Below are positions 1 through 29,434 of a stretch of DNA of 29,434 bases, one piece after another. Numbering within the stretch: the first letter of the stretch is position 1; each line of letters starts with the position of its first letter. The DNA comes from a virus. The translations under genes and the position numbers were made by a program. The stretch lies in UHGV virus genome UHGV-0114363; one strand, given 5' to 3'. Below the pieces are notes generated by a model. That model saw only the letters and a list, made by a program, of their open reading frames with translations, was not told where the DNA came from and did no database searches.

Positions 1-81
1 TTGCCCACCTCAATTTTAACTGATTATTGATATTGAAAACTCGTACTTTTAACTGATACAGATATTTAGGAAACCATAAAT

Positions 82-447
82 TTATTTGTCCAAGATTCTA
101 TCCATAATATTTCTTAGTTCTTGTCTGGTTGATTCTATTTTAGCAAGCAACGTTTTGATCAATGAGGGTGAAAAATCAACTGTGCGTGGATCGTTAGCTA
201 ACCACAGTTTAAGTAACCCACCAAGTCGACCAAGATCAGCATTTACTCGGCTAAGCTCTACAACCTGTTCAATATCTACAATAGACTCAACCTGATAACC
301 CATTGCTACTTTACGAATGAAGCTCGCTACACTTAAGCCAGATGCTTCTGCATTTTCCTGGATTTGCGCTTTTTCATCTGGCAAACAATAAACTTTAATT
401 GGTGTACTATTTTTTCTAGTCTGAGAAACGGTCATATCATTCTCCAT
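82..447 (-). CDS. NikA/MobC-like ribbon-helix-helix relaxosome accessory (mobilization) protein
   Basis: 121-aa ORF; segment KVYCLPDEKAQIQENAEASGLSVASFIRKVAMG...LGRLGGLLK resembles the RHH core of plasmid NikA/MobC-type oriT-binding proteins (recollection of R64 NikA pattern). A GAGGTG Shine-Dalgarno at the extreme left edge (minus sense) suggests the next gene, plausibly a relaxase, starts just off-window. Confidence 0.5.
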   Translation of the reverse strand: MENDMTVSQTRKNSTPIKVYCLPDEKAQIQENAEASGLSVASFIRKVAMGYQVESIVDIEQVVELSRVNADLGRLGGLLKLWLANDPRTVDFSPSLIKTLLAKIESTRQELRNIMDRILDK

Positions 448-515
448 ACAGGCGGTAGCCGATCAGCCTCGCAGAGCAGGACTCCGTTGAGCAGCCCAGC
501 TGCTAATAAGAGAAG

Positions 516-553
516 GTAAAGTAGAAGCACCGTTTACGGTGGGCCTACTTTAC
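516..553. repeat. Inverted repeat GTAAAGTAG / CTACTTTAC enclosing palindrome ACCGTTTACGGT; candidate oriT or operator element
   Basis: Perfect 9-bp arms at 516-524 and 545-553 with nested palindrome at 529-540; lies about 70 bp upstream of the NikA/MobC-like start codon; no flanking T-tract so not an intrinsic terminator. Confidence 0.4.
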
Positions 554-584
554 ATGTCCTGCCCTACATTTGCCGTTGTGAATC

Positions 585-623
585 TGTGTACGTATTGTGT
601 ATTCCTGTGTACTCAGTGTGTTT
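585..623. repeat. Four helically phased TGTGT(A/T) direct repeats (candidate protein-binding array)
   Basis: TGTGT cores start at 585, 596, 606 and 617 (spacing 11, 10, 11 bp) in the intergenic region between the AlpA-like and NikA/MobC-like genes. Confidence 0.4.
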
Positions 624-717
624 TCCTAAAGCATTTGTGCAGGATTAGTAGTGTAAAAATGTGCAGCATATGTGTTTATTGGAAGGGAAATTATTTGAAT
701 GACCCTAAGAAATATTT

Positions 718-1011
718 TTATTCTCGCGGCTTGGGTTTTGGCGGCCTGCCACGTTTCCTTTGAAACCTATTTATCTCTTTCGCTATATCGTCATTTTCTG
801 TCTTTGACTCAACAGATTTATCTATCCAATCCTTAACATCTTCTCTACGCCAGAGAAGACGTTTATTACCGGGAAGACGGCATCTTGGTGGAAGACATTT
901 TGGATTTCGCGTTGCATCACTGCGGATACTTTTTACAGTTTTCTTTAATGCAAAAGCCAACTCTTCAACGGTTATAAGTTCTGGCATAACTGATTTCATC
1001 GAAGAACCCAT
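718..1011 (-). CDS. AlpA-family helix-turn-helix regulator / excisionase-like protein with C-terminal AT-hook
   Basis: 97-aa ORF; LITVEELAFALKKTVKSIRS...LLWRREDVKDWI matches the AlpA/Xis-type HTH pattern; C-terminal KRGRPPKPKP is an AT-hook-like basic tail. Start could be 1011 or 999. Confidence 0.6.
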   Translation of the reverse strand: MGSSMKSVMPELITVEELAFALKKTVKSIRSDATRNPKCLPPRCRLPGNKRLLWRREDVKDWIDKSVESKTENDDIAKEINRFQRKRGRPPKPKPRE

Positions 1012-1033
1012 CTCTCAGTAGAAATTTGAGGAT

Positions 1034-1061
1034 TTTAGCGGCTAAAATTTTAGCCGCTAAA
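1034..1061. promoter_or_regulatory. 28-bp perfect palindrome TTTAGCGGCTAAAATTTTAGCCGCTAAA (candidate operator)
   Basis: Arms 1034-1047 and 1048-1061 are exact reverse complements; sits 23-50 bp upstream of the AlpA-like start codon. Confidence 0.5.
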
Positions 1062-1311
1062 GTTTGCTAACCAACGTTATGAATTGAGAATAATTAAAAC
1101 TTACTGGCAAAAAGAATAATGTCAACAGGATTTTTATTCATCGGATTTTTACTCCATATGAAATTGGTTTTATTGACCGATTTCTGAATGACACTAAGGT
1201 TTTAATAATTCCTTTAATCTTTTTGGTTATATAAAAGGTTAAAGATCAGGTTAGAGAGGTGTGGAAAAGCGATATATTCATTTGTATATTATGACAATTT
1301 TAAATTATATC

Positions 1312-1372
1312 CGTACCTCAAATGTCATGAAAGCGTACCTCATATGTCATAAAGGCGTACCTCATATGTCAT
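1312..1372. repeat. Three iteron-like direct repeats with 22-bp phase (core CGTACCTCA(A/T)ATGTCAT)
   Basis: 17-bp cores at 1312-1328, 1334-1350 and 1356-1372; copies 2 and 3 identical, copy 1 differs at one base; followed by several hundred bp of very AT-rich non-coding DNA. Confidence 0.6.
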
Positions 1373-1460
1373 ATAATAAAAAATAAGCAAACAAGTTATA
1401 CACAATATTATTCACAGAATCTGTGGATAAATACACAGATTATACATGATAAAATAGATT

Positions 1461-1659
1461 GTTTAGCTAAACTAAATAGCAATAAATAAAATGAAACAAA
1501 ATGTAAATAACAGAGAGTTGTAGATAACTTATAAATTTGGTTAGCTAACCTTTATAAGAAACACTGTTTGTAAAAGATTCATTTCTGACAACGGATATAT
1601 CGAAATTTAGTAAGTAAAATGCCACAGCTAAATCTTTTATATCATTTGTTTAGCTATAC
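1461..1659. promoter_or_regulatory. Three dispersed palindromic sites with TTAGCTA core (candidate operators)
   Basis: GTTTAGCTAAAC at 1461-1472 (perfect palindrome), GGTTAGCTAACC at 1539-1550 (perfect palindrome), GTTTAGCTATAC at 1648-1659 (one mismatch); the TTTAGC half-site also occurs in the 28-bp palindrome at 1034-1061. A CACAGAATCTGTG palindrome lies at 1413-1425. Confidence 0.45.
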
Positions 1660-1974
1660 TATTTTTACTAAGGGTTATGTATATCTAAACTACAAAAACA
1701 GCAATGCAAAAGATAAACGGGTAACAATCGTAGAAAAGCTTTGTTGCTGAGGGGTTACCCTCATTGGAAACCGGCTTGAGATAAGTATCATATGAGGATA
1801 TCAAATCCGACTGGTGAGGCCAGGTTTGATAATTTGAAGCGCTGGACGTAGCGTAGATGCCACAATAGAGGAGACAATAGTAAATTAAATTATAAGATAA
1901 ATGCAGATTTTTGTTTCGCTATGAAGTTATCACTGAAGATAAAGTATTCTAAGATAGATGAATGTGAGGTTGCC

Positions 1975-2235
1975 ATGACAACGATGAAAGCTAGACCCAG
2001 TTCTGTTGCGGATATTCTTTTAAATGAGTATTTGAAACCTTTAGCTATGTCTTCACGTGACTTAGCTAATTTGATGGGAGTACCTTATAGCAGAATTGAC
2101 GATATATTACGACACTCTAAAAATATAAGTAATAGAGAGGGGGAATTACTTTCTAAAATCTTCAATACTGATAGCGATTTTTGGATAAAACTTCAAGAAA
2201 ACTATATAAATCATACATGCAAATTCCATAAATAG
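1975..2235 (+). CDS. HigA-family antitoxin-like XRE helix-turn-helix protein (solitary)
   Basis: PSSVADILLNEYLKPLAMSSRDLANLMGVPYSRIDDILRHSKNISNREGELLSKIFNTDSDFWIKLQ matches the HigA-type HTH pattern; GAGGT Shine-Dalgarno 4 nt before the ATG at 1975. No toxin-sized ORF on either side. Confidence 0.6.
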   Translation: MTTMKARPSSVADILLNEYLKPLAMSSRDLANLMGVPYSRIDDILRHSKNISNREGELLSKIFNTDSDFWIKLQENYINHTCKFHK

Positions 2236-2499
2236 TGCATAAACGCTAACTTAAGGCATATATTATTTGTACTACGCCGTTGTATTAAAGAGAGATATCA
2301 AGCAACAAAAATCAACTATAATAGGTAAAAAATCAGTATGAAGGAATTATCACAATCTGCACGATGGTTCTAATATAAATTTAGTAAAATAAAACATAAA
2401 TCATTTCCGTATAAAAAGATGGCCAGGTCTTTATCATCGACCCAGCCAATTAGTAAAGGATTTTTCATTTCAAACTCATTAAACCTTAGGCATAAAACC

Positions 2500-4989
2500 T
2501 TAATGTTCAATATCTATTTGATTATCAATTTGAATAATGTTTTGAATCTCACTGTAAATATCAATGTTCTCATCTGGTACATCTATGCTAACCAATAAAC
2601 TATATTTAACATTGTTAATATAGCGATCCTGCGCAGTACGATATTTCCACCATCCACCAACAGGATAGACAGCGATAGTATTCATCTCTGTTAAATCTGC
2701 AGCACTGCCTTTCCAAGCATCTGAGTGTAATGAACCTCTAACTCTGAGTTGAGGCCCCAGAAACCATCCTGACGCATCTCCTTCAGGTCCATTGTATTCT
2801 TCATTATTCGCATTACGGTTTATCGAAGCACGGAAATTTTCAAGGGTCTGATTAGGTCTAATAACTGCAAATCTCAATCCATGAGATTGATACGAATATT
2901 GTCGTCTGAATCCTTTTTGACTTGGATTAGGTTCAATAAAATACGACAATGTGATTCTTAAAATAACATTTGTTTCTGGTGGTAGTAAGCGAAGAGCTTC
3001 TACGGGCCAAGGGAGTGAAAACAGATGCATTTCATTCAATGTAGGATCAGTAGAACCATCTCTTTTAAATGGGGTGATTTCCGACTGAGATATTAATGTA
3101 AGTGCATTTTCCGCACTATGCATTGCTCGATTTAAATTAGGTACTCCATAACCAACCATCCTTAATAAGCTTTCTTTAGCCGATTTTGGTGTCCCCTGTG
3201 CACGTTCTGTTCTATATCGTTCGTGCATACGACTAGTCCATCTTGCTGTATGAACAAGTAATCCCCTAATAGTTTCAGGCCAATATTCTGGGTACTGAGC
3301 CATTAGCATAGCAGCATGTTTTGATACTAGAGCACAGGCTGCGCTAGTATCTGAATTAACTTCAAACAATTGATTTGTTGCCCTGCCAGAGGTTGTGAGC
3401 AAAGATAATTCAATTGTATTTGTGATTTCATCACGGCTAGGTGATATAAGTTTGTTTCCGCCTTCCTCTACTAAATCTGGCTTATATGGGGCATGCTTTT
3501 TCCATCCCCAGGATACCGATGACCGAGATGACGGTGCAATATCTTCTGACATAGCGAAAGGAGACCAACCATCATATTCGCGGTCTGTATGGGTTGTTTT
3601 ATCAGTATACGCCCCTACAGTTAATGCATTCCAAGATTGAGCAGGATCTTCAATTTCAGCAAGAGTCACTGAATCCCAATAATCTAATTCTAAATTTGTA
3701 GGTTGAGAGTTACCCGCAGAAATTATAAATAATCTGCGGATATCATCCTCTAAACCAAAACTAAACTTGTCAATCTCTGCAGACCATGAGGACGGTTGGC
3801 CTCCAAGAGTATTAGGCTCTGCTGTCACAGCAAGCGAATAAACTCTGCGCCAGTTCGGGTTTTCCAGCTCCAGACGACTTGACGTTCCTGTAGTAATAGC
3901 TCCATAAAGATTAGGATCATTAGTAGCTCTTGGAGGTAGTATCCTTCCTGATTCGATATTGTACGGAATCGAAATGTCCTGATCGTTCAATAAAACAGAC
4001 AGGAAATCTCCATAAACACATAGTCCTGCTTGTCTGGAACCGTGGTCATTATAAGGCCTTTGATTATAATCATCGAAAAGTGGCCAAGATATGTCCCAAG
4101 CAGCTGCCAGTGATGAGTTAGTAAATCTAGATAATAGTGGATTATTGTAGTTAACACCTGTATCTAATATACAAACAGAAACATCAGCTTCATTGTTACG
4201 CGTAATTCTTGCAGCAACATTTTCTGCCCACTGATGCTGTTCTGTAGGTAAGGAATTAACTATAACTGATATATCATCCCTCGCTGATCTTATCTCTTTT
4301 AAATTAGATATTAATTCAGGACAAACTTTTAATCTCGATAGACTCGTACGGATAAGAACAACAGTAGTATCGAAAAAATTAATAGAAGTATTCCCGAGCC
4401 TTCCATTAATTCTTTCGCATAAACGCCGAGCAATATTTAGCACATCCTCCTTATTACCCTTAAGCCAAAGCTCAAACCACTTTTCAACACCGTGATCATC
4501 CGGAATAAGATCTTTTTTATCTGTCCAGAAAGAAGTTATATCTGCTAACTCGATATTTTGTATGCTATCAATTAACAAATGATTTCTAGGGAACTCGATA
4601 CCATCCTTCGATGGATTCAAATAGTCATTTATTTTTTTAGTGAATTTAGTTCTGTCATTTTCATTAATGTATATAATCGCAGTTTCACGATTATTTGATT
4701 TAACTAAAGAACAAAGCTTGAAATAAGTATTATCGATTTTATCTATAGGAAGATCGCATTGTTCAAAACTGATTAGCCTAACATAAATCCCTTTTTCATC
4801 AGTAACAGGGGGAAGCCTCGGTCTTTCATCATAATGATTCAATATACGGCTATACTGATTTAGTAATGATATACCATGTACCGCTCGATCACGAGCTGGG
4901 ACTTGGGGACTACGACCATTGCTCCTAGAGCGATAGTTTTCGGGGGAAACATAGCCGTTTAATAAAATATGCCTCTTGTTGGTAGTCAT
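2500..4989 (-). CDS. Subtilisin-like serine peptidase (S8 family), 829 aa, with extra N- and C-terminal domains
   Basis: Catalytic residues in canonical subtilase order: Asp in VCILDTGVN (about residue 276), His in YNDHGSRQ (316), oxyanion Asn in FIISAGNSQ (427), Ser in NSDTSAACALV (549); ALTVGAYT motif present. AGGGA Shine-Dalgarno overlaps the 3' end of the upstream ATPase gene (8-nt gap). Confidence 0.8.
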   Translation of the reverse strand: MTTNKRHILLNGYVSPENYRSRSNGRSPQVPARDRAVHGISLLNQYSRILNHYDERPRLPPVTDEKGIYVRLISFEQCDLPIDKIDNTYFKLCSLVKSNNRETAIIYINENDRTKFTKKINDYLNPSKDGIEFPRNHLLIDSIQNIELADITSFWTDKKDLIPDDHGVEKWFELWLKGNKEDVLNIARRLCERINGRLGNTSINFFDTTVVLIRTSLSRLKVCPELISNLKEIRSARDDISVIVNSLPTEQHQWAENVAARITRNNEADVSVCILDTGVNYNNPLLSRFTNSSLAAAWDISWPLFDDYNQRPYNDHGSRQAGLCVYGDFLSVLLNDQDISIPYNIESGRILPPRATNDPNLYGAITTGTSSRLELENPNWRRVYSLAVTAEPNTLGGQPSSWSAEIDKFSFGLEDDIRRLFIISAGNSQPTNLELDYWDSVTLAEIEDPAQSWNALTVGAYTDKTTHTDREYDGWSPFAMSEDIAPSSRSSVSWGWKKHAPYKPDLVEEGGNKLISPSRDEITNTIELSLLTTSGRATNQLFEVNSDTSAACALVSKHAAMLMAQYPEYWPETIRGLLVHTARWTSRMHERYRTERAQGTPKSAKESLLRMVGYGVPNLNRAMHSAENALTLISQSEITPFKRDGSTDPTLNEMHLFSLPWPVEALRLLPPETNVILRITLSYFIEPNPSQKGFRRQYSYQSHGLRFAVIRPNQTLENFRASINRNANNEEYNGPEGDASGWFLGPQLRVRGSLHSDAWKGSAADLTEMNTIAVYPVGGWWKYRTAQDRYINNVKYSLLVSIDVPDENIDIYSEIQNIIQIDNQIDIEH

Positions 4990-4997
4990 TTCATCCC

Positions 4998-5984
4998 TTA
5001 TTGTCTACTTTCTTGCCTACGCTTTATAGCCTTTACTAACAAATCGGTTGTAATATTGTTTGCATTATAAAGCACTGATTCTTTGGCAGCATCTTCACTT
5101 GCTCGCGTGATCTCCGCTGCACTTAGACCTGAAGCACTATCAATGATCTCACTCCAAAATAAATTACCGAGGTCAAAGACAGCGAGTCTCTGTTCAATAA
5201 GATTCCTGATTAGATTATCCTCAGGCCTTGTGAACGGTATAATATCGTCAAATCGTCTATATAAGGCGCGATCTAAAAGCTCTGGATGATTGGTTGCAGC
5301 TAAAACTATGCTCTCAGAATCATCCTGCTCTACAAACATTAAAAAAGAATTTAAGACCCTACGAATTTCTCCAACGTCATTCTGAGCGCCACGCTGAGTT
5401 CCTATAGCATCGAACTCGTCAAAAAAATATACAGCTCTTGTTTGCCGTATGTGGTCAAAAATTAAACGCAGCTTAGCTGCAGTTTCACCCATATAGCGAG
5501 TGATTAGATTATCTAAGACGACTGTATAAAGTGGTAGCTTTAACTCTGTAGCAATGACTGATGCGGACATTGTCTTACCAGTACCGGGAGGACCAGTGAA
5601 AAGAATTTTTCTTCTTGGAATAAGCCCAAACTCAGAAAGTTTATCTTTCTGTTTTTGTTCAAGCAGAACCTGATTCAATCTTTCCCTAACGCTTCCAGAA
5701 ATCACCAGATCTTGAAGATGTACTGGCTTGTTCGTTTGCTCAAGTAACCCCTTAAGATCACCATCAGGCTGCTTAACAAATGGTGTAAGTCGTTTTTCAA
5801 CTAAACCTACAGAACTCGTTGTTTTCTGATTTTTATCAACTAAGTTTTTTATATCATTAGCAAGCTTATGATGACCTTGCCTTGCTTCCTTAGCTGCCAC
5901 CTGCAAAGCAATAGAAAAGAAACGCTGATCATCACGATCAACGTGGCTTTTCAATAAAGCTTTGATCTGCTCTGCAGTAGCCAT
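4998..5984 (-). CDS. AAA+ ATPase (classical AAA clade), 328 aa
   Basis: Walker A GPPGTGKT (131-138), Walker B VYFFDEFD (about 186-192), sensor-1 LAATNHPELLD (about 229-238) and RRFD (243-246); roughly 100-aa helical N-terminal region; first gene of a two-gene operon with the S8 peptidase. Confidence 0.85.
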   Translation of the reverse strand: MATAEQIKALLKSHVDRDDQRFFSIALQVAAKEARQGHHKLANDIKNLVDKNQKTTSSVGLVEKRLTPFVKQPDGDLKGLLEQTNKPVHLQDLVISGSVRERLNQVLLEQKQKDKLSEFGLIPRRKILFTGPPGTGKTMSASVIATELKLPLYTVVLDNLITRYMGETAAKLRLIFDHIRQTRAVYFFDEFDAIGTQRGAQNDVGEIRRVLNSFLMFVEQDDSESIVLAATNHPELLDRALYRRFDDIIPFTRPEDNLIRNLIEQRLAVFDLGNLFWSEIIDSASGLSAAEITRASEDAAKESVLYNANNITTDLLVKAIKRRQESRQ

Positions 5985-6448
5985 AACCCCTCATACTCCC
6001 TTGTTCTCTTGTTGCAAAGTTTACTATAAATTCATTTAGTTCGACATCGTTACCTACCTGCTCATTACAGGAAAGTAATACCTTCATGAGCGTATCATCA
6101 ATGATCAAAGTGTAATCAAACACCTAGGCATAGTACCTTCACTACGTGAACTGTATCACTCATTGTTATGTAACCTGAGTGTCCCTTTCTGGCACTTAGC
6201 TCTATCGGATAATGTATTTAAGCTGTTAATTTATAAGATTTTTCATCACTAAACTGTCTTTCATGCAACGCATCGATAAGGTCAACACATTACGTTTATA
6301 AGGAAGTAGTTTGTTTAGCGTAATGATGCAAATGCTGACCAATTAGCTTTGCCACAATTTTGCCACACCTACAACGCGCAAAATTGCACATTAGTGTTGA
6401 ACAAAGCAAAATACTGCAATAGTAACTTGATGATTTTACGAGAAAAGA

Positions 6449-6494
6449 TGGTGCCGATAATAGGAGTCGAACCTACGACCTTCGCATTACGAAT
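6449..6494 (-). other. Partial tRNA-Thr(CGU) 3' end (46 nt): anticodon loop through CCA; att core repeat
   Basis: Minus-strand sequence ATTCGTAATGCGAAGGTCGTAGGTTCGACTCCTATTATCGGCACCA has a CGT anticodon loop, GGTTCGACTCC T-arm and terminal CCA; no D-arm or 5' acceptor half follows, so it is a 3' fragment typical of an integrase att duplication. Matches my recollection of enterobacterial thrW. Confidence 0.7.
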
Positions 6495-6655
6495 CTGTAG
6501 CACCAATCATAACTATCTGTTTTAGCAAGCATTAACCGCATTCACTAAGTTATAGTTGATGGCACAAACAGAAAGTTGATGCATGATGTTTTCATGCGTA
6601 TGTCACAAATACGGCACAACAATCTTCAAATATGTAGACACACATCCACAGGAGA

Positions 6656-6691
6656 GCACAAAGCCTTGCAATACAGTGCAAAGCTTTGTGC
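6656..6691. terminator. Long hairpin (15-bp stem, one mismatch, 6-nt loop) downstream of the tail fiber assembly gene
   Basis: GCACAAAGCCTTGCA-ATACAG-TGCAAAGCTTTGTGC; only a weak T-run follows (GTTTTGT at about 6697-6703) so terminator function is uncertain. Confidence 0.35.
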
Positions 6692-6719
6692 GTATCAGTT
6701 TTGTCCTGTGCGCCGGATG

Positions 6720-7325
6720 TCATCTGGCCTGAACTTCCGGAGGCGTAGGCCATTCAATATCCGGTGCGCTGGCGGTATCAACGCCCTCCAGCGCATCCAG
6801 ATAATCAAGCCAGGCATTATATTGTTCTTTTTCTGCGTCCTTCAGGCGACCCATTGCTGCTTTACCAGGCCATTGCTTACCATTCATAAAGTCATTGGCC
6901 TGGCTAATCAGCGCCTGTAGTTTTGTTGCCGCCACAGAAATATCATATGCGCGCTGAGCTTCGGGATCGGCAACCCATTTATTACCATCCCATTTATCAA
7001 ACTTTGTAGTTGGTGCTTCAAAAGTAAAGCCTTCACGCAACGGTCCAATATATTCGATAGTCACCGGCTTCCCGTTACTGGTGGTGTATGCTGTTTCTCC
7101 ACGATGGTCTTCTTTAAGCACCCACTCAGATCCAGAAAAAATAAATACCTTCCCTCCTGCTTCGGCCCCTGGTTCTATCGCCGTAGAGCATCCGGGCATA
7201 CTGACACCGATGTTAATAAACTCGTCAGACCATCCCATATATTCAGAAGTCACAGCGTCGTAGTAATAACAGCGGATTTCACCCGGTTCTGTTGCCAGTC
7301 CGTTTACATCGAAAACAGGTTTCAT
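6720..7325 (-). CDS. Tail fiber assembly protein (Tfa)
   Basis: C-terminal EKEQYNAWLDYLDALEGVDTASAPDIEWPTPP is the conserved Tfa C-terminal signature; start overlaps the fiber gene stop. Confidence 0.8.
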   Translation of the reverse strand: MKPVFDVNGLATEPGEIRCYYYDAVTSEYMGWSDEFINIGVSMPGCSTAIEPGAEAGGKVFIFSGSEWVLKEDHRGETAYTTSNGKPVTIEYIGPLREGFTFEAPTTKFDKWDGNKWVADPEAQRAYDISVAATKLQALISQANDFMNGKQWPGKAAMGRLKDAEKEQYNAWLDYLDALEGVDTASAPDIEWPTPPEVQAR

Positions 7326-8083
7326 TATTTAGCCCTTACAAGAAAGTTGAATGCAATATTTCTTGGGCGGCTTTCCGTGGATGTTCTGGCAACCCTCGAT
7401 AAATCAAAATTGAATGTAGAAGTTGATACGGTTCCGCCTGGTGCCGGGGGGGCCAGATTGCCCTGAACAACGCTGCGAGAAAATACCCCCAACGCATCTG
7501 TATTTACCCCTGTATAAAGATCAACGAGATAACCAGTAACATTCTGAATGGCGTCTCCCTGCGGTGAAAGCAGGGTTCGCCCATTATCTATCCCACGTCC
7601 ATCATCCCAGACACGCAGAAACTCTCCTCGCAGATCTGGCAATTTCAGGCCCGGCCAAACAAGGGCCAATTTTGGGTAAGTGGTAGGGGAAAATGTTGAG
7701 TCGTTAAACTTAAGGAACACCATGTCGGCCCATTCCGGCATCACGGTATTTGGCATGGCAGAAGACGGCCAAAAAAATGGAACTCCTATCGGTGGTGCAC
7801 CTGCTCCTAAACCAAGGTTTGTGGTAATCGCTGTCGCCAGCTTTGCCACCAGTCCATCAACGTCACCATCATCGAGCGCGTCCAGTTCGGCGTTCGCGAT
7901 AAACTGCCCCAGTACAGCCGCCATCGTCGACGGTTGGCGCAGCGCTTTACTGACCTGTGCGCTGGATGCTTTACCCGAGGAGAATCCTTTCTTCAGTGCG
8001 GTTAGCGTCTCCCATTCCTCCTGCGAGGTAACATTTGCATTAGCATCTGTCGCAAACGCTTTAAAATCATTAGTTCCAGCCAT
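7325..8083 (-). CDS. Tail fiber protein
   Basis: Position between baseplate genes and Tfa; Gly/Ala-rich central region; start at 8083 overlaps the upstream stop by one base (TAATG). Confidence 0.65.
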   Translation of the reverse strand: MAGTNDFKAFATDANANVTSQEEWETLTALKKGFSSGKASSAQVSKALRQPSTMAAVLGQFIANAELDALDDGDVDGLVAKLATAITTNLGLGAGAPPIGVPFFWPSSAMPNTVMPEWADMVFLKFNDSTFSPTTYPKLALVWPGLKLPDLRGEFLRVWDDGRGIDNGRTLLSPQGDAIQNVTGYLVDLYTGVNTDALGVFSRSVVQGNLAPPAPGGTVSTSTFNFDLSRVARTSTESRPRNIAFNFLVRAK

Positions 8084-27860: not shown

Positions 27861-28517
27861 TTAAGCCAGTCGCAGCATGCACGTCCCGCACGCTCTGGCA
27901 ATATCGAGATGAGCAACCTCCGCTGGCTGATTCGCCGCATCAATCATTTCCTGCACGTCCCGGCTTGCACCGTAACGGCGAACCACGCCCACAAACTCTT
28001 CCACGTCATGACCGCGCAGCTTCAGCTTTGGCTGCCCTTCCTGCGTGAACTTCGGCGCACCAAATTCATCTGTCGCTTGGCAGATGTGATAAAGCTCGTG
28101 CTCTATCAGCGCGCAGAATTCCAGATCGGAACATTGCGAGCAGTAATCGGCGGCCAGCGTGATGATGAACTGCGGCACCCTGCCGAACCATTCATACATC
28201 TGCTGCTCCATCCGCGCTTTCTGCCAGCCTCCGGCCCGCATTGCCACTTCTTCCGCCTGCCCCAGCACGGAACGCCCTTTCTTCTCGAAAGCGTTCGATG
28301 CCCAGAGAAAGCACAGATCCGCTTCAAGCAAATGCTGGTGGTCATGGTTGTAGAGGTCACCCTCATCGCTCAGGATGTGCTGATTCAGCCACTCGCCAAC
28401 GTCATTAGCGGGCATAATGCTGATGTACGGCTTCGGGTCAGGTGGCATCGTAAAATGCGCTGGTGGGTGTGGTCTGTTCATGAATAATTCCAGTGCTCCA
28501 TTATCGAAGCCCCTCAA
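27861..28517 (-). CDS. HExxH motif protein (putative phage zinc metallopeptidase)
   Basis: ALIEHELYHICQ contains an HExxH zinc-binding signature; located between Rha and the packaging genes, a typical moron/accessory position. Confidence 0.5.
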   Translation of the reverse strand: MRGFDNGALELFMNRPHPPAHFTMPPDPKPYISIMPANDVGEWLNQHILSDEGDLYNHDHQHLLEADLCFLWASNAFEKKGRSVLGQAEEVAMRAGGWQKARMEQQMYEWFGRVPQFIITLAADYCSQCSDLEFCALIEHELYHICQATDEFGAPKFTQEGQPKLKLRGHDVEEFVGVVRRYGASRDVQEMIDAANQPAEVAHLDIARACGTCMLRLA

Positions 28518-28541
28518 TGAAGGGCTTCTGTAATGCCGCGA

Positions 28542-29060
28542 TCAGCCAATAAGTAATTCCGGCTGCGTTACCTGCATGATGTGCTCATGTTCGAGCTCCA
28601 GGACGCGCTTCTCTTTCTTCCGCTCGTTCATCAAACGGCTTCCGATCGTGCCTTTCAGCTTTGAGCGCGTTTCTTTGATGGCGTAGCGATGCTGCAATTC
28701 TTCACCCATCGCCATGCGCCGGTTTAGCTGCTCGGCCATCCAGTTGAAGGCATTGATGTAACACTCCTTCACTGCGGCAGCTGTTTTGCCAGTGAATCCC
28801 ATCACTAGCATCATGCATCCGTCGCGGGTGATGTTATACATAGGCTGAACATCGCCATTTTTATCAATGAAATCAATGGGCGCAAAATTGCGCTGGGTGA
28901 AGTCATCGGAGCATTTCAGGTTACGTATGGCACGCAAAACGTCTTTGTGTCGCTTGCCAAAGTAATCCGCCACCTTGAGTGATGTGGTGATTATCTTGTT
29001 GTCGAGGGTCGTGACCATTTCGCGGAAGTCGAAGGCCGGAATAACTGACGGATTATTCAT
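28542..29060 (-). CDS. Rha-family phage regulatory protein
   Basis: N-terminus from MNNPSVIPAFDFREMVTTLDNKIITTSLKVADYFGKRHKDVLRAIRNL matches the Rha pattern; start set at 29060. Confidence 0.7.
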   Translation of the reverse strand: MNNPSVIPAFDFREMVTTLDNKIITTSLKVADYFGKRHKDVLRAIRNLKCSDDFTQRNFAPIDFIDKNGDVQPMYNITRDGCMMLVMGFTGKTAAAVKECYINAFNWMAEQLNRRMAMGEELQHRYAIKETRSKLKGTIGSRLMNERKKEKRVLELEHEHIMQVTQPELLIG

Positions 29061-29209
29061 AGCGTCTTTACCTTTTAGAAAGTGAGCCTGTCTCACAGAA
29101 AAGCCGCCCCGAGATGGTCGCCACCATATACGGCAGTTCTCAGGCTCAACTTTCTGAAAGGCTCGGGTGATGTAATATGCGCGTGAGATGCGCTGTGAAA
29201 TTCAGATGT

Positions 29210-29233
29210 AAAAAAAGCCCCGCATCGCGAGGC
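29210..29233 (-). terminator. Rho-independent terminator after the lysis cassette (minus strand)
   Basis: Minus-sense GCCTCGC-GAT-GCGGGGC stem-loop (7-bp stem with one G-U pair) followed by seven T. Confidence 0.5.
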
Positions 29234-29265
29234 TCATTAAATTGACTTTGTGATTTGCAAAAAAA

Positions 29266-29434
29266 TTATTTCAGGCATTGCGTCCTGATGTATTCCTGCA
29301 GGTAGTTAACCTGCGCGGTTATCCTGTCGATTCCGCTTCGGAGACGGTAATAATTGAGTTCAGCATCTGCTGTAAGTCTTGGGCTTTCTCCATCGCCCAT
29401 GCTGCTGGCTCCGGTCGTTGACTTTGCACAGGTG
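29266..29434 (-). CDS. i-spanin Rz, C-terminal 55 codons (partial, start off-window)
   Basis: Hand translation ...GESPRLTADAELNYYRLRSGIDRITAQVNYLQEYIRTQCLK* parallels the lambda Rz C-terminus pattern (SPRL.AD.AE.DYF.LR ... YI..QC); ORF open to the window edge. Confidence 0.6.
   Translation of the reverse strand, partial: TCAKSTTGASSMGDGESPRLTADAELNYYRLRSGIDRITAQVNYLQEYIRTQCLK
29319..29434 (-). CDS. o-spanin Rz1 embedded in the +1 frame of Rz (partial)
   Basis: +1 frame reads ...PEPAAWAMEKAQDLQQMLNSIITVSEAESTG*, resembling the lambda Rz1 C-terminus (AW.M...LN.II..SE); classic embedded-gene arrangement. Confidence 0.45.
   Translation of the reverse strand, partial: PVQSQRPEPAAWAMEKAQDLQQMLNSIITVSEAESTG

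Follow-up and report, generated by a model that had tools for sequence, protein, structure and literature searches.

The window analysed here, the whole stretch of 29,434 nt, holds two unlike segments of DNA separated by a piece of a tRNA gene. On the left is an AT-rich island that contains an intact IetA/IetS anti-phage defence pair, located outside the attachment site; on the right are the structural genes of a prophage, and the GC content at the core between them steps from 36.8% on the left to 53.5% on the right. From left to right, the features on which the argument depends are these:

2500-4989, minus strand: IetS, an S8 peptidase of 829 aa (PADLOC E = 2.9e-34; Pfam Peptidase_S8)
4998-5984, minus strand: IetA, an AAA ATPase of 328 aa (PADLOC E = 5.5e-77; Pfam AAA)
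5985-6448, unstranded: B' arm, the sequence immediately 3' of thrW in prophage-free strains with the island (14EC047 alignment)
6449-6494, minus strand: att core, the displaced 3' end of thrW (tRNA positions 31-76), 46/46 identical to 14EC047 thrW, to HK446 and mEp213 attP, and to both TUM2820 junctions
6495-6719, unstranded: phage P arm, corresponding to the tail-side arm in attP of the HK446/mEp213/SfX type, approximately 95% identical and contiguous with the core
6720-7325, minus strand: tail fibre assembly gene, the first prophage gene beside the junction (Pfam Caudo_TAP, E = 7e-28; 98% DNA identity to mEp213)
7325-29434, minus strand: prophage body, continuing beyond the window (matches to Omnitron, SEN34, and 2021CK-01361; Pfam DUF2612, Baseplate_J)

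The plus strand at 6449-6494 reads TGGTGCCGATAATAGGAGTCGAACCTACGACCTTCGCATTACGAAT, and its reverse complement, the minus strand, reads ATTCGTAATGCGAAGGTCGTAGGTTCGACTCCTATTATCGGCACCA. In the latter orientation all 46 bases are identical to thrW, the tRNA-Thr(CGU) gene, of E. coli 14EC047, where they occupy tRNA positions 31-76, beginning with the final base on the 5' side of the anticodon stem and taking in the CGT-bearing anticodon loop, the 3' side of that stem, the variable loop and T arm, and the 3' acceptor strand through to CCA. In three comparison genomes, 14EC047 among them, ARAGORN calls thrW as tRNA-Thr with anticodon cgt. The initial annotation had described the minus strand as the portion of a tRNA-Thr(CGT) from anticodon loop to CCA, which is correct to within one base, and had placed the divergence from the tRNA immediately 5' of the anticodon loop. 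The core is indeed the 3' end of thrW with a sharp boundary: the identity ends abruptly, the base just upstream of the match being G in the window and C in thrW, and beyond that base the two sequences agree only at scattered positions. The 46-mer is present as a single copy in the window when up to 3 mismatches are allowed and appears in 0 of 100 shuffles, and no 14-mer taken from it occurs a second time within the window.

The 46-nt stretch is a displaced, non-functional 3' tRNA fragment and not a gene, because ARAGORN calls no tRNA gene in the 29,434-nt window and the Rfam tRNA model scores 15.7 bits at the core, below its gathering score of 29. A still-functional tRNA at 6449-6494 was rejected on these two results. 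The 5' 30 nt of thrW have been replaced at this locus by phage arm sequence, and no complete cloverleaf (acceptor stem, D arm, and anticodon stem) is present there. An intact tRNA overlapping the fragment, which the initial annotation had named as an observation that would refute its reading, was looked for with ARAGORN and is absent from the window.

To the right of the core, the window follows the sequence of free phages. From 6448 to approximately 6705 it is 94-95% identical to mEp213, mEp043, HK446, mEpX2, HK75, HK542, ECP1, and SfX, and this match is contiguous with the core and ends at its left edge (6448), the left flank being unmatched in these phages. The attachment site is annotated in the records of HK446, HK542, mEp213, mEp043, and mEpX2 as similar to thrW and to ptwF of CP4-6. 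In HK446 and mEp213 the core has xis-int to one side and tail fibre genes to the other, and it is the tail fibre side that matches the window; the right flank is the arm found next to this core in the attP of free phages. Three GKCACAA heptamers in the same orientation (plus strand, at 6561, 6602, and 6613) lie within 59 bp (6561-6619) and are the sole plus-strand copies in the 29.4-kb window, and two more copies are found on the int-side arm of HK446 and mEp213 attP. This two-plus-three layout around the core resembles the arm-type Int sites of lambda, and by pattern alone the heptamers are candidate arm-type integrase sites. There is also a 20-nt repeat, ATG(G/T)CACAAATACGGCACAA, present once per arm in HK446 and mEp213 attP. 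The P arm of the window, repeats included, is intact and 95-99% identical to free phages and to TUM2820. A 15-bp inverted repeat with a 6-nt loop lies at 6656-6691, between the stop codon of the tail fibre assembly gene and the heptamers, and is conserved in the attP of both mEp213 and HK446; it does not conform to the simple pattern of an intrinsic terminator, and a scan of 5900-6900 found no promoters or terminators at the junction.

To the left of the core, the window follows the chromosome. Positions 4438-6494 are 100% identical to prophage-free 14EC047, where the same sequence continues into a complete thrW, with proA, proB, and phoE after it. When complete E. coli genomes were searched with 5500-7500, many matches at or near 100% identity were returned that cover the left half only and end at 6494 or 6495, and for about half of those matches listed a tRNA-Thr is annotated under the match. 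This flank is host DNA that adjoins an intact thrW in unoccupied genomes; in prophage-free strains, the left island is what flanks intact thrW on its downstream side. It is also rare accessory DNA, and ordinary core chromosome is ruled out; only 30 of 5426 complete E. coli genomes contain the stretch from IetA to thrW (4998-6448) with a coverage of 80% or above, and approximately 70 further genomes share just its last 100 bp or so.

The island has a composite gene content of its own. The IetA/IetS pair is the closest cargo downstream of thrW; in 14EC047, IetS is interrupted by IS1, with window positions 4438-4446 duplicated at the insertion. A traJ-II RNA motif at 465-564 on the minus strand (Rfam 87.3 bits, E = 8e-16) is found just upstream of a 121-aa NikA-like/TraJ ORF at 82-447 on the same strand; together they are the remnant of a conjugative-plasmid transfer region in a chromosomal island, and in 14EC047 a truncated TrbJ gene adjoins this remnant. 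A gene annotated as a HigA-family antitoxin is flanked by AT-rich (31-34% GC) stretches, 1012-1920 and 2236-2499, that contain no ORF of 60 aa or more, and no toxin partner for it is evident in the ORF list of the window. The variable region of 14EC047 between thrW and rclC carries, at approximately 32000-47500 of the extracted locus, a locus of heat resistance between IS elements that includes clpK, sHSP20, yfdX, and kefB-GI.

How might the last 46 nt of thrW have come to lie between such an island and a phage arm? A four-way alignment gives the relationship of the junctions. In attB, represented by 14EC047, the order is island flank, core, and thrW 5' half; in attP, represented by HK446 and mEp213, it is int arm, core, and tail arm. 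The window and the near end of the TUM2820 prophage have the island flank, core, and tail arm, and the far end of the TUM2820 prophage has the int arm, core, and thrW 5' half. An extra A at the left edge of the core is shared by chance and extends the identity to 47 bp. The junction in the window is a hybrid of attB and attP, and its reciprocal is present in comparable genomes. This pattern is the one expected from reciprocal site-specific recombination within the 46-bp core. We put the probability at about 0.93 that window positions 6449-6494 are the int-distal att junction (P-O-B', or attR by lambda convention) of a temperate phage integrated by a tyrosine integrase into the 3' end of thrW. 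The att core at the prophage boundary proposed in the initial annotation is borne out on both sides, the left flank matching at 100% the sequence that lies downstream of thrW in 14EC047 and the right flank matching the attP arm at approximately 95%. The prediction that the prophage body lies to the right agrees with the direction of the GC step and with the tail fibre assembly, baseplate, tail, head, terminase, and lysis genes that follow.

The events that would generate such a junction can be outlined. The phage attP would carry a 46-bp copy of thrW positions 31-76, and strand exchange by Int within the core would join the 5' half of the chromosomal thrW to the phage copy of the 3' half. A working thrW would in this way be rebuilt beside xis-int at the far end of the prophage, beyond the window, and the original chromosomal 3' 46 nt would be left stranded between the tail fibre arm of the phage and the host DNA downstream of thrW. 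The phage core would take the place of the thrW 3' 46 nt at that other junction, and therefore the tRNA gene would stay functional. The stranded fragment and the far copy could then serve as the substrate for excision of the prophage by Int and Xis.

Two genomes indicate what the far end may look like. TUM2820 shares the junction of the window, with 99.6% identity over 4777-6705, and has an intact tRNA-Thr, with the second copy of the core inside it, 39.7 kb to the right of the fragment. The gene order there is an excisionase-like helix-turn-helix gene overlapping a site-specific integrase gene, then tRNA-Thr, proA, and proB, and the TUM2820 Int is 100% identical to HK446 Int. E. coli 2021CK-01361, the closest relative of the prophage body, likewise ends in xis-int-tRNA-Thr-proA with a copy of the core in the intact thrW, and its Int is only 65% identical to HK446 Int. 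The initial annotation had placed the intact tRNA and the integrase at the far end of the prophage, in agreement with the arrangement in both of these genomes. The type of integrase is not fixed by the prophage body, as 2021CK-01361 makes evident, and the P arm of the window matches the HK446 type. By analogy with these genomes, an integrase and a rebuilt thrW are predicted approximately 40 kb to the right, beyond the window, and the far end of this prophage is probably intact. Its integrase is likely to be of the HK446/SfX type, and an HK446-type int arm with the sequence GCAATGGCACAAATACGGCACAAGAGG... is predicted beside the far-end core. The exact junction together with this prophage is present in no complete E. 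coli genome searched, none of which covers 80% or more of 5500-7500, and a 91-nt exact junction pattern has no match in species-representative genomes. When the DUF2280 small-terminase-like protein served as an exact-match query, eight loci were recovered that are 95-98% identical to the window, none of them fully so; this protein is common (3589 index blocks).

The prophage genes are all on the minus strand and, proceeding rightward from the core, encode tail fibre assembly (Caudo_TAP), tail fibre, DUF2612, Baseplate_J, and further baseplate proteins, then tape measure, tube and sheath, head, portal, terminase, Rha, and lysis functions. The best prophage match to the body is the thrW prophage of 2021CK-01361 (87% coverage, 96.6% identity); among phages, it matches Citrobacter phage Omnitron (88% coverage, 96% identity) and Salmonella phage SEN34 (52% coverage, 85% identity), both of which are contractile-tailed. 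Positions 6448-7362, which take in the att arm and the tail fibre assembly gene together with the C-terminal tip of the tail fibre, are 98% identical to the siphovirus mEp213. The mosaic joint is at approximately 7362, with mEp213-like sequence to its left and an Omnitron/SEN34-like myovirus tail and head module to its right. The att module and host-range cassette are mosaic relative to the virion module, because 6495-7362 is mEp213-like and the body is Omnitron/SEN34-like; the prophage can be described, from these matches, as a mosaic myovirus, and they suggest that a host-range cassette linked to the att arm was swapped in. Such mosaicism is usual among temperate enterobacterial phages. A further mosaic segment is found at the right end of the window, where the Rha and spanin region (28499-29434) is 96% identical to phi80.

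An integrated junction of this kind need not belong to a functional prophage. The int-proximal end could have been deleted or rearranged, in which case the 46-mer would be a scar without a partner and the element would be unable to excise. The far end lies outside the window, prophage ends at thrW do become damaged (the tail-side end in 2021CK-01361 has been truncated by IS26, leaving no fragment copy there), and IS elements riddle the neighbouring island in both 14EC047 and TUM2820. However, the ORFs across all 23 kb of prophage sequence in the window are long and uninterrupted and follow the order of those in the viable phages Omnitron and SEN34, the P arm with its repeats is intact and closely matches free phages and TUM2820, and both TUM2820 and 2021CK-01361 have complete int-thrW ends. 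A fossil junction is, on balance, unlikely. Chance resemblance, or a decayed pseudo-tRNA that has nothing to do with integration, has in its favour the absence of a full tRNA and nothing more, and is extremely improbable: the identity is 46/46 with no occurrence in the shuffles, and the match breaks off at the very base that bounds the attP core in characterised phages, where the GC content also steps. Chance similarity of the 46-mer as such was refuted by the shuffles, the attP boundary, and the four-way alignment.

The 46-mer might instead lie between two elements in a tandem array, the AT-rich island being a second thrW element with its distal core to the left of position 1. There is precedent for serial insertion at thrW. 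E. coli O19:H7 730V1 contains two prophages with a copy of the core between them and the same IetA flank, in the order IetA flank, core, lambdoid prophage ending in int, core, and SEN34-like prophage; its core copies are at 2168-2213 and 46774-46819 of the extracted locus, and the first, lambdoid prophage has an Avs2 defence gene beside its att junction. Up to 4 copies of the core are found per E. coli genome, and the island is foreign, judging from its 36.8% GC, its defence system, its plasmid transfer remnants, and its presence in 30 of 5426 genomes. In a tandem array, however, the left neighbour of the core would be an integrase arm, as it is in 730V1, whereas in the window that place is taken by the DNA found after intact thrW in prophage-free strains. 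No further copy of the core, allowing up to 8 substitutions or any shared 14-mer, is present in window positions 1-6448, and none is present in 62 kb of 14EC047 from thrW through the variable region into rclC, betT, and yahK, nor is any integrase annotated in that 62-kb 14EC047 island between thrW and the conserved genes. The initial annotation had offered downstream flank and tandem element as alternatives for the island; the first has stood, since the island follows intact thrW in prophage-free strains, and the second is unsupported because neither the window nor the 62 kb of 14EC047 yielded a third core copy. We regard the tandem arrangement as quite unlikely. A related idea, that the IetAS island is itself a decayed thrW element with its distal att beyond the left end of the window and the 46-mer as the shared middle att, so that the integrase would co-mobilise island and prophage, is more doubtful still, and nothing among the data examined favours the island as a decayed thrW-integrated element. 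If it were true, recombination between the outer copies would allow the prophage integrase to mobilise a defence island along with the prophage.

The reading of 6449-6494 as the int-distal att junction of a thrW prophage is of value chiefly for annotation. The fragment places the left edge of the prophage at 6494/6495, exact to the base, and separates the prophage from an unrelated IetAS defence island that would otherwise be lumped with it. It also predicts the other end, approximately 40 kb to the right, as xis, an HK446/SfX-type int, and a rebuilt thrW, then proA. Thousands of E. coli genomes have extra copies of the core: among 5426 complete genomes, 5017 contain it, with 7616 occurrences in total and two copies in K-12, and the core together with a P arm of the type in the window is found in 132 of the 5426. 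This type of junction is common and well understood, the 46-bp thrW core is already published, and there is nothing new here about integration.

The nearest known systems, with an SfX-type integrase, are the thrW lambdoid phages HK446, mEp213, mEp043, mEpX2, HK75, HK542, and SfX, in which the 46-bp core is identical and the repeat layout is the same. The tail-side arm of the window is approximately 95% identical to theirs over about 210 bp, and the identity to mEp213 is 98% through the tail fibre assembly gene; across the core, phages of this HK446/mEp213/SfX group have xis-int. Unlike the HK446/mEp213 group, which are siphoviruses with lambda- or HK97-like tails, the prophage described here has a SEN34/Omnitron-like contractile-tail structural module, and unlike the records of that group, which contain attP, the window contains the integrated junction.

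P22, SfII, and SfV use the same target, thrW, and have a 46-47-bp core that is 100% identical, but the similarity to the window does not extend from the core into their attP arms, and the gtr serotype-conversion genes that adjoin attP in the Sf phages are absent here. The initial annotation had mentioned a 46-bp core shared by phages that target thrW, and this is in the literature: the thrW prophages of SfI, SfV, and SfIV have a 46-bp attP at both ends (PMC3851460), and thrW is described as being reconstituted by the P22 attP (PMC8022706). SfX has an Int and Xis with very little identity to those of SfI, SfII, SfIV, and SfV (PMC3851460).

The arrangement is also reminiscent of CP4-6 in K-12, with its thrW/ptwF pair, where an intact thrW and an orphan thrW fragment bracket integrated DNA at the same locus. 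Unlike CP4-6, which is a decayed remnant, the prophage in the window has an apparently complete phage morphogenesis module, and its neighbour across the fragment is the IetAS island rather than CP4-6 genes.
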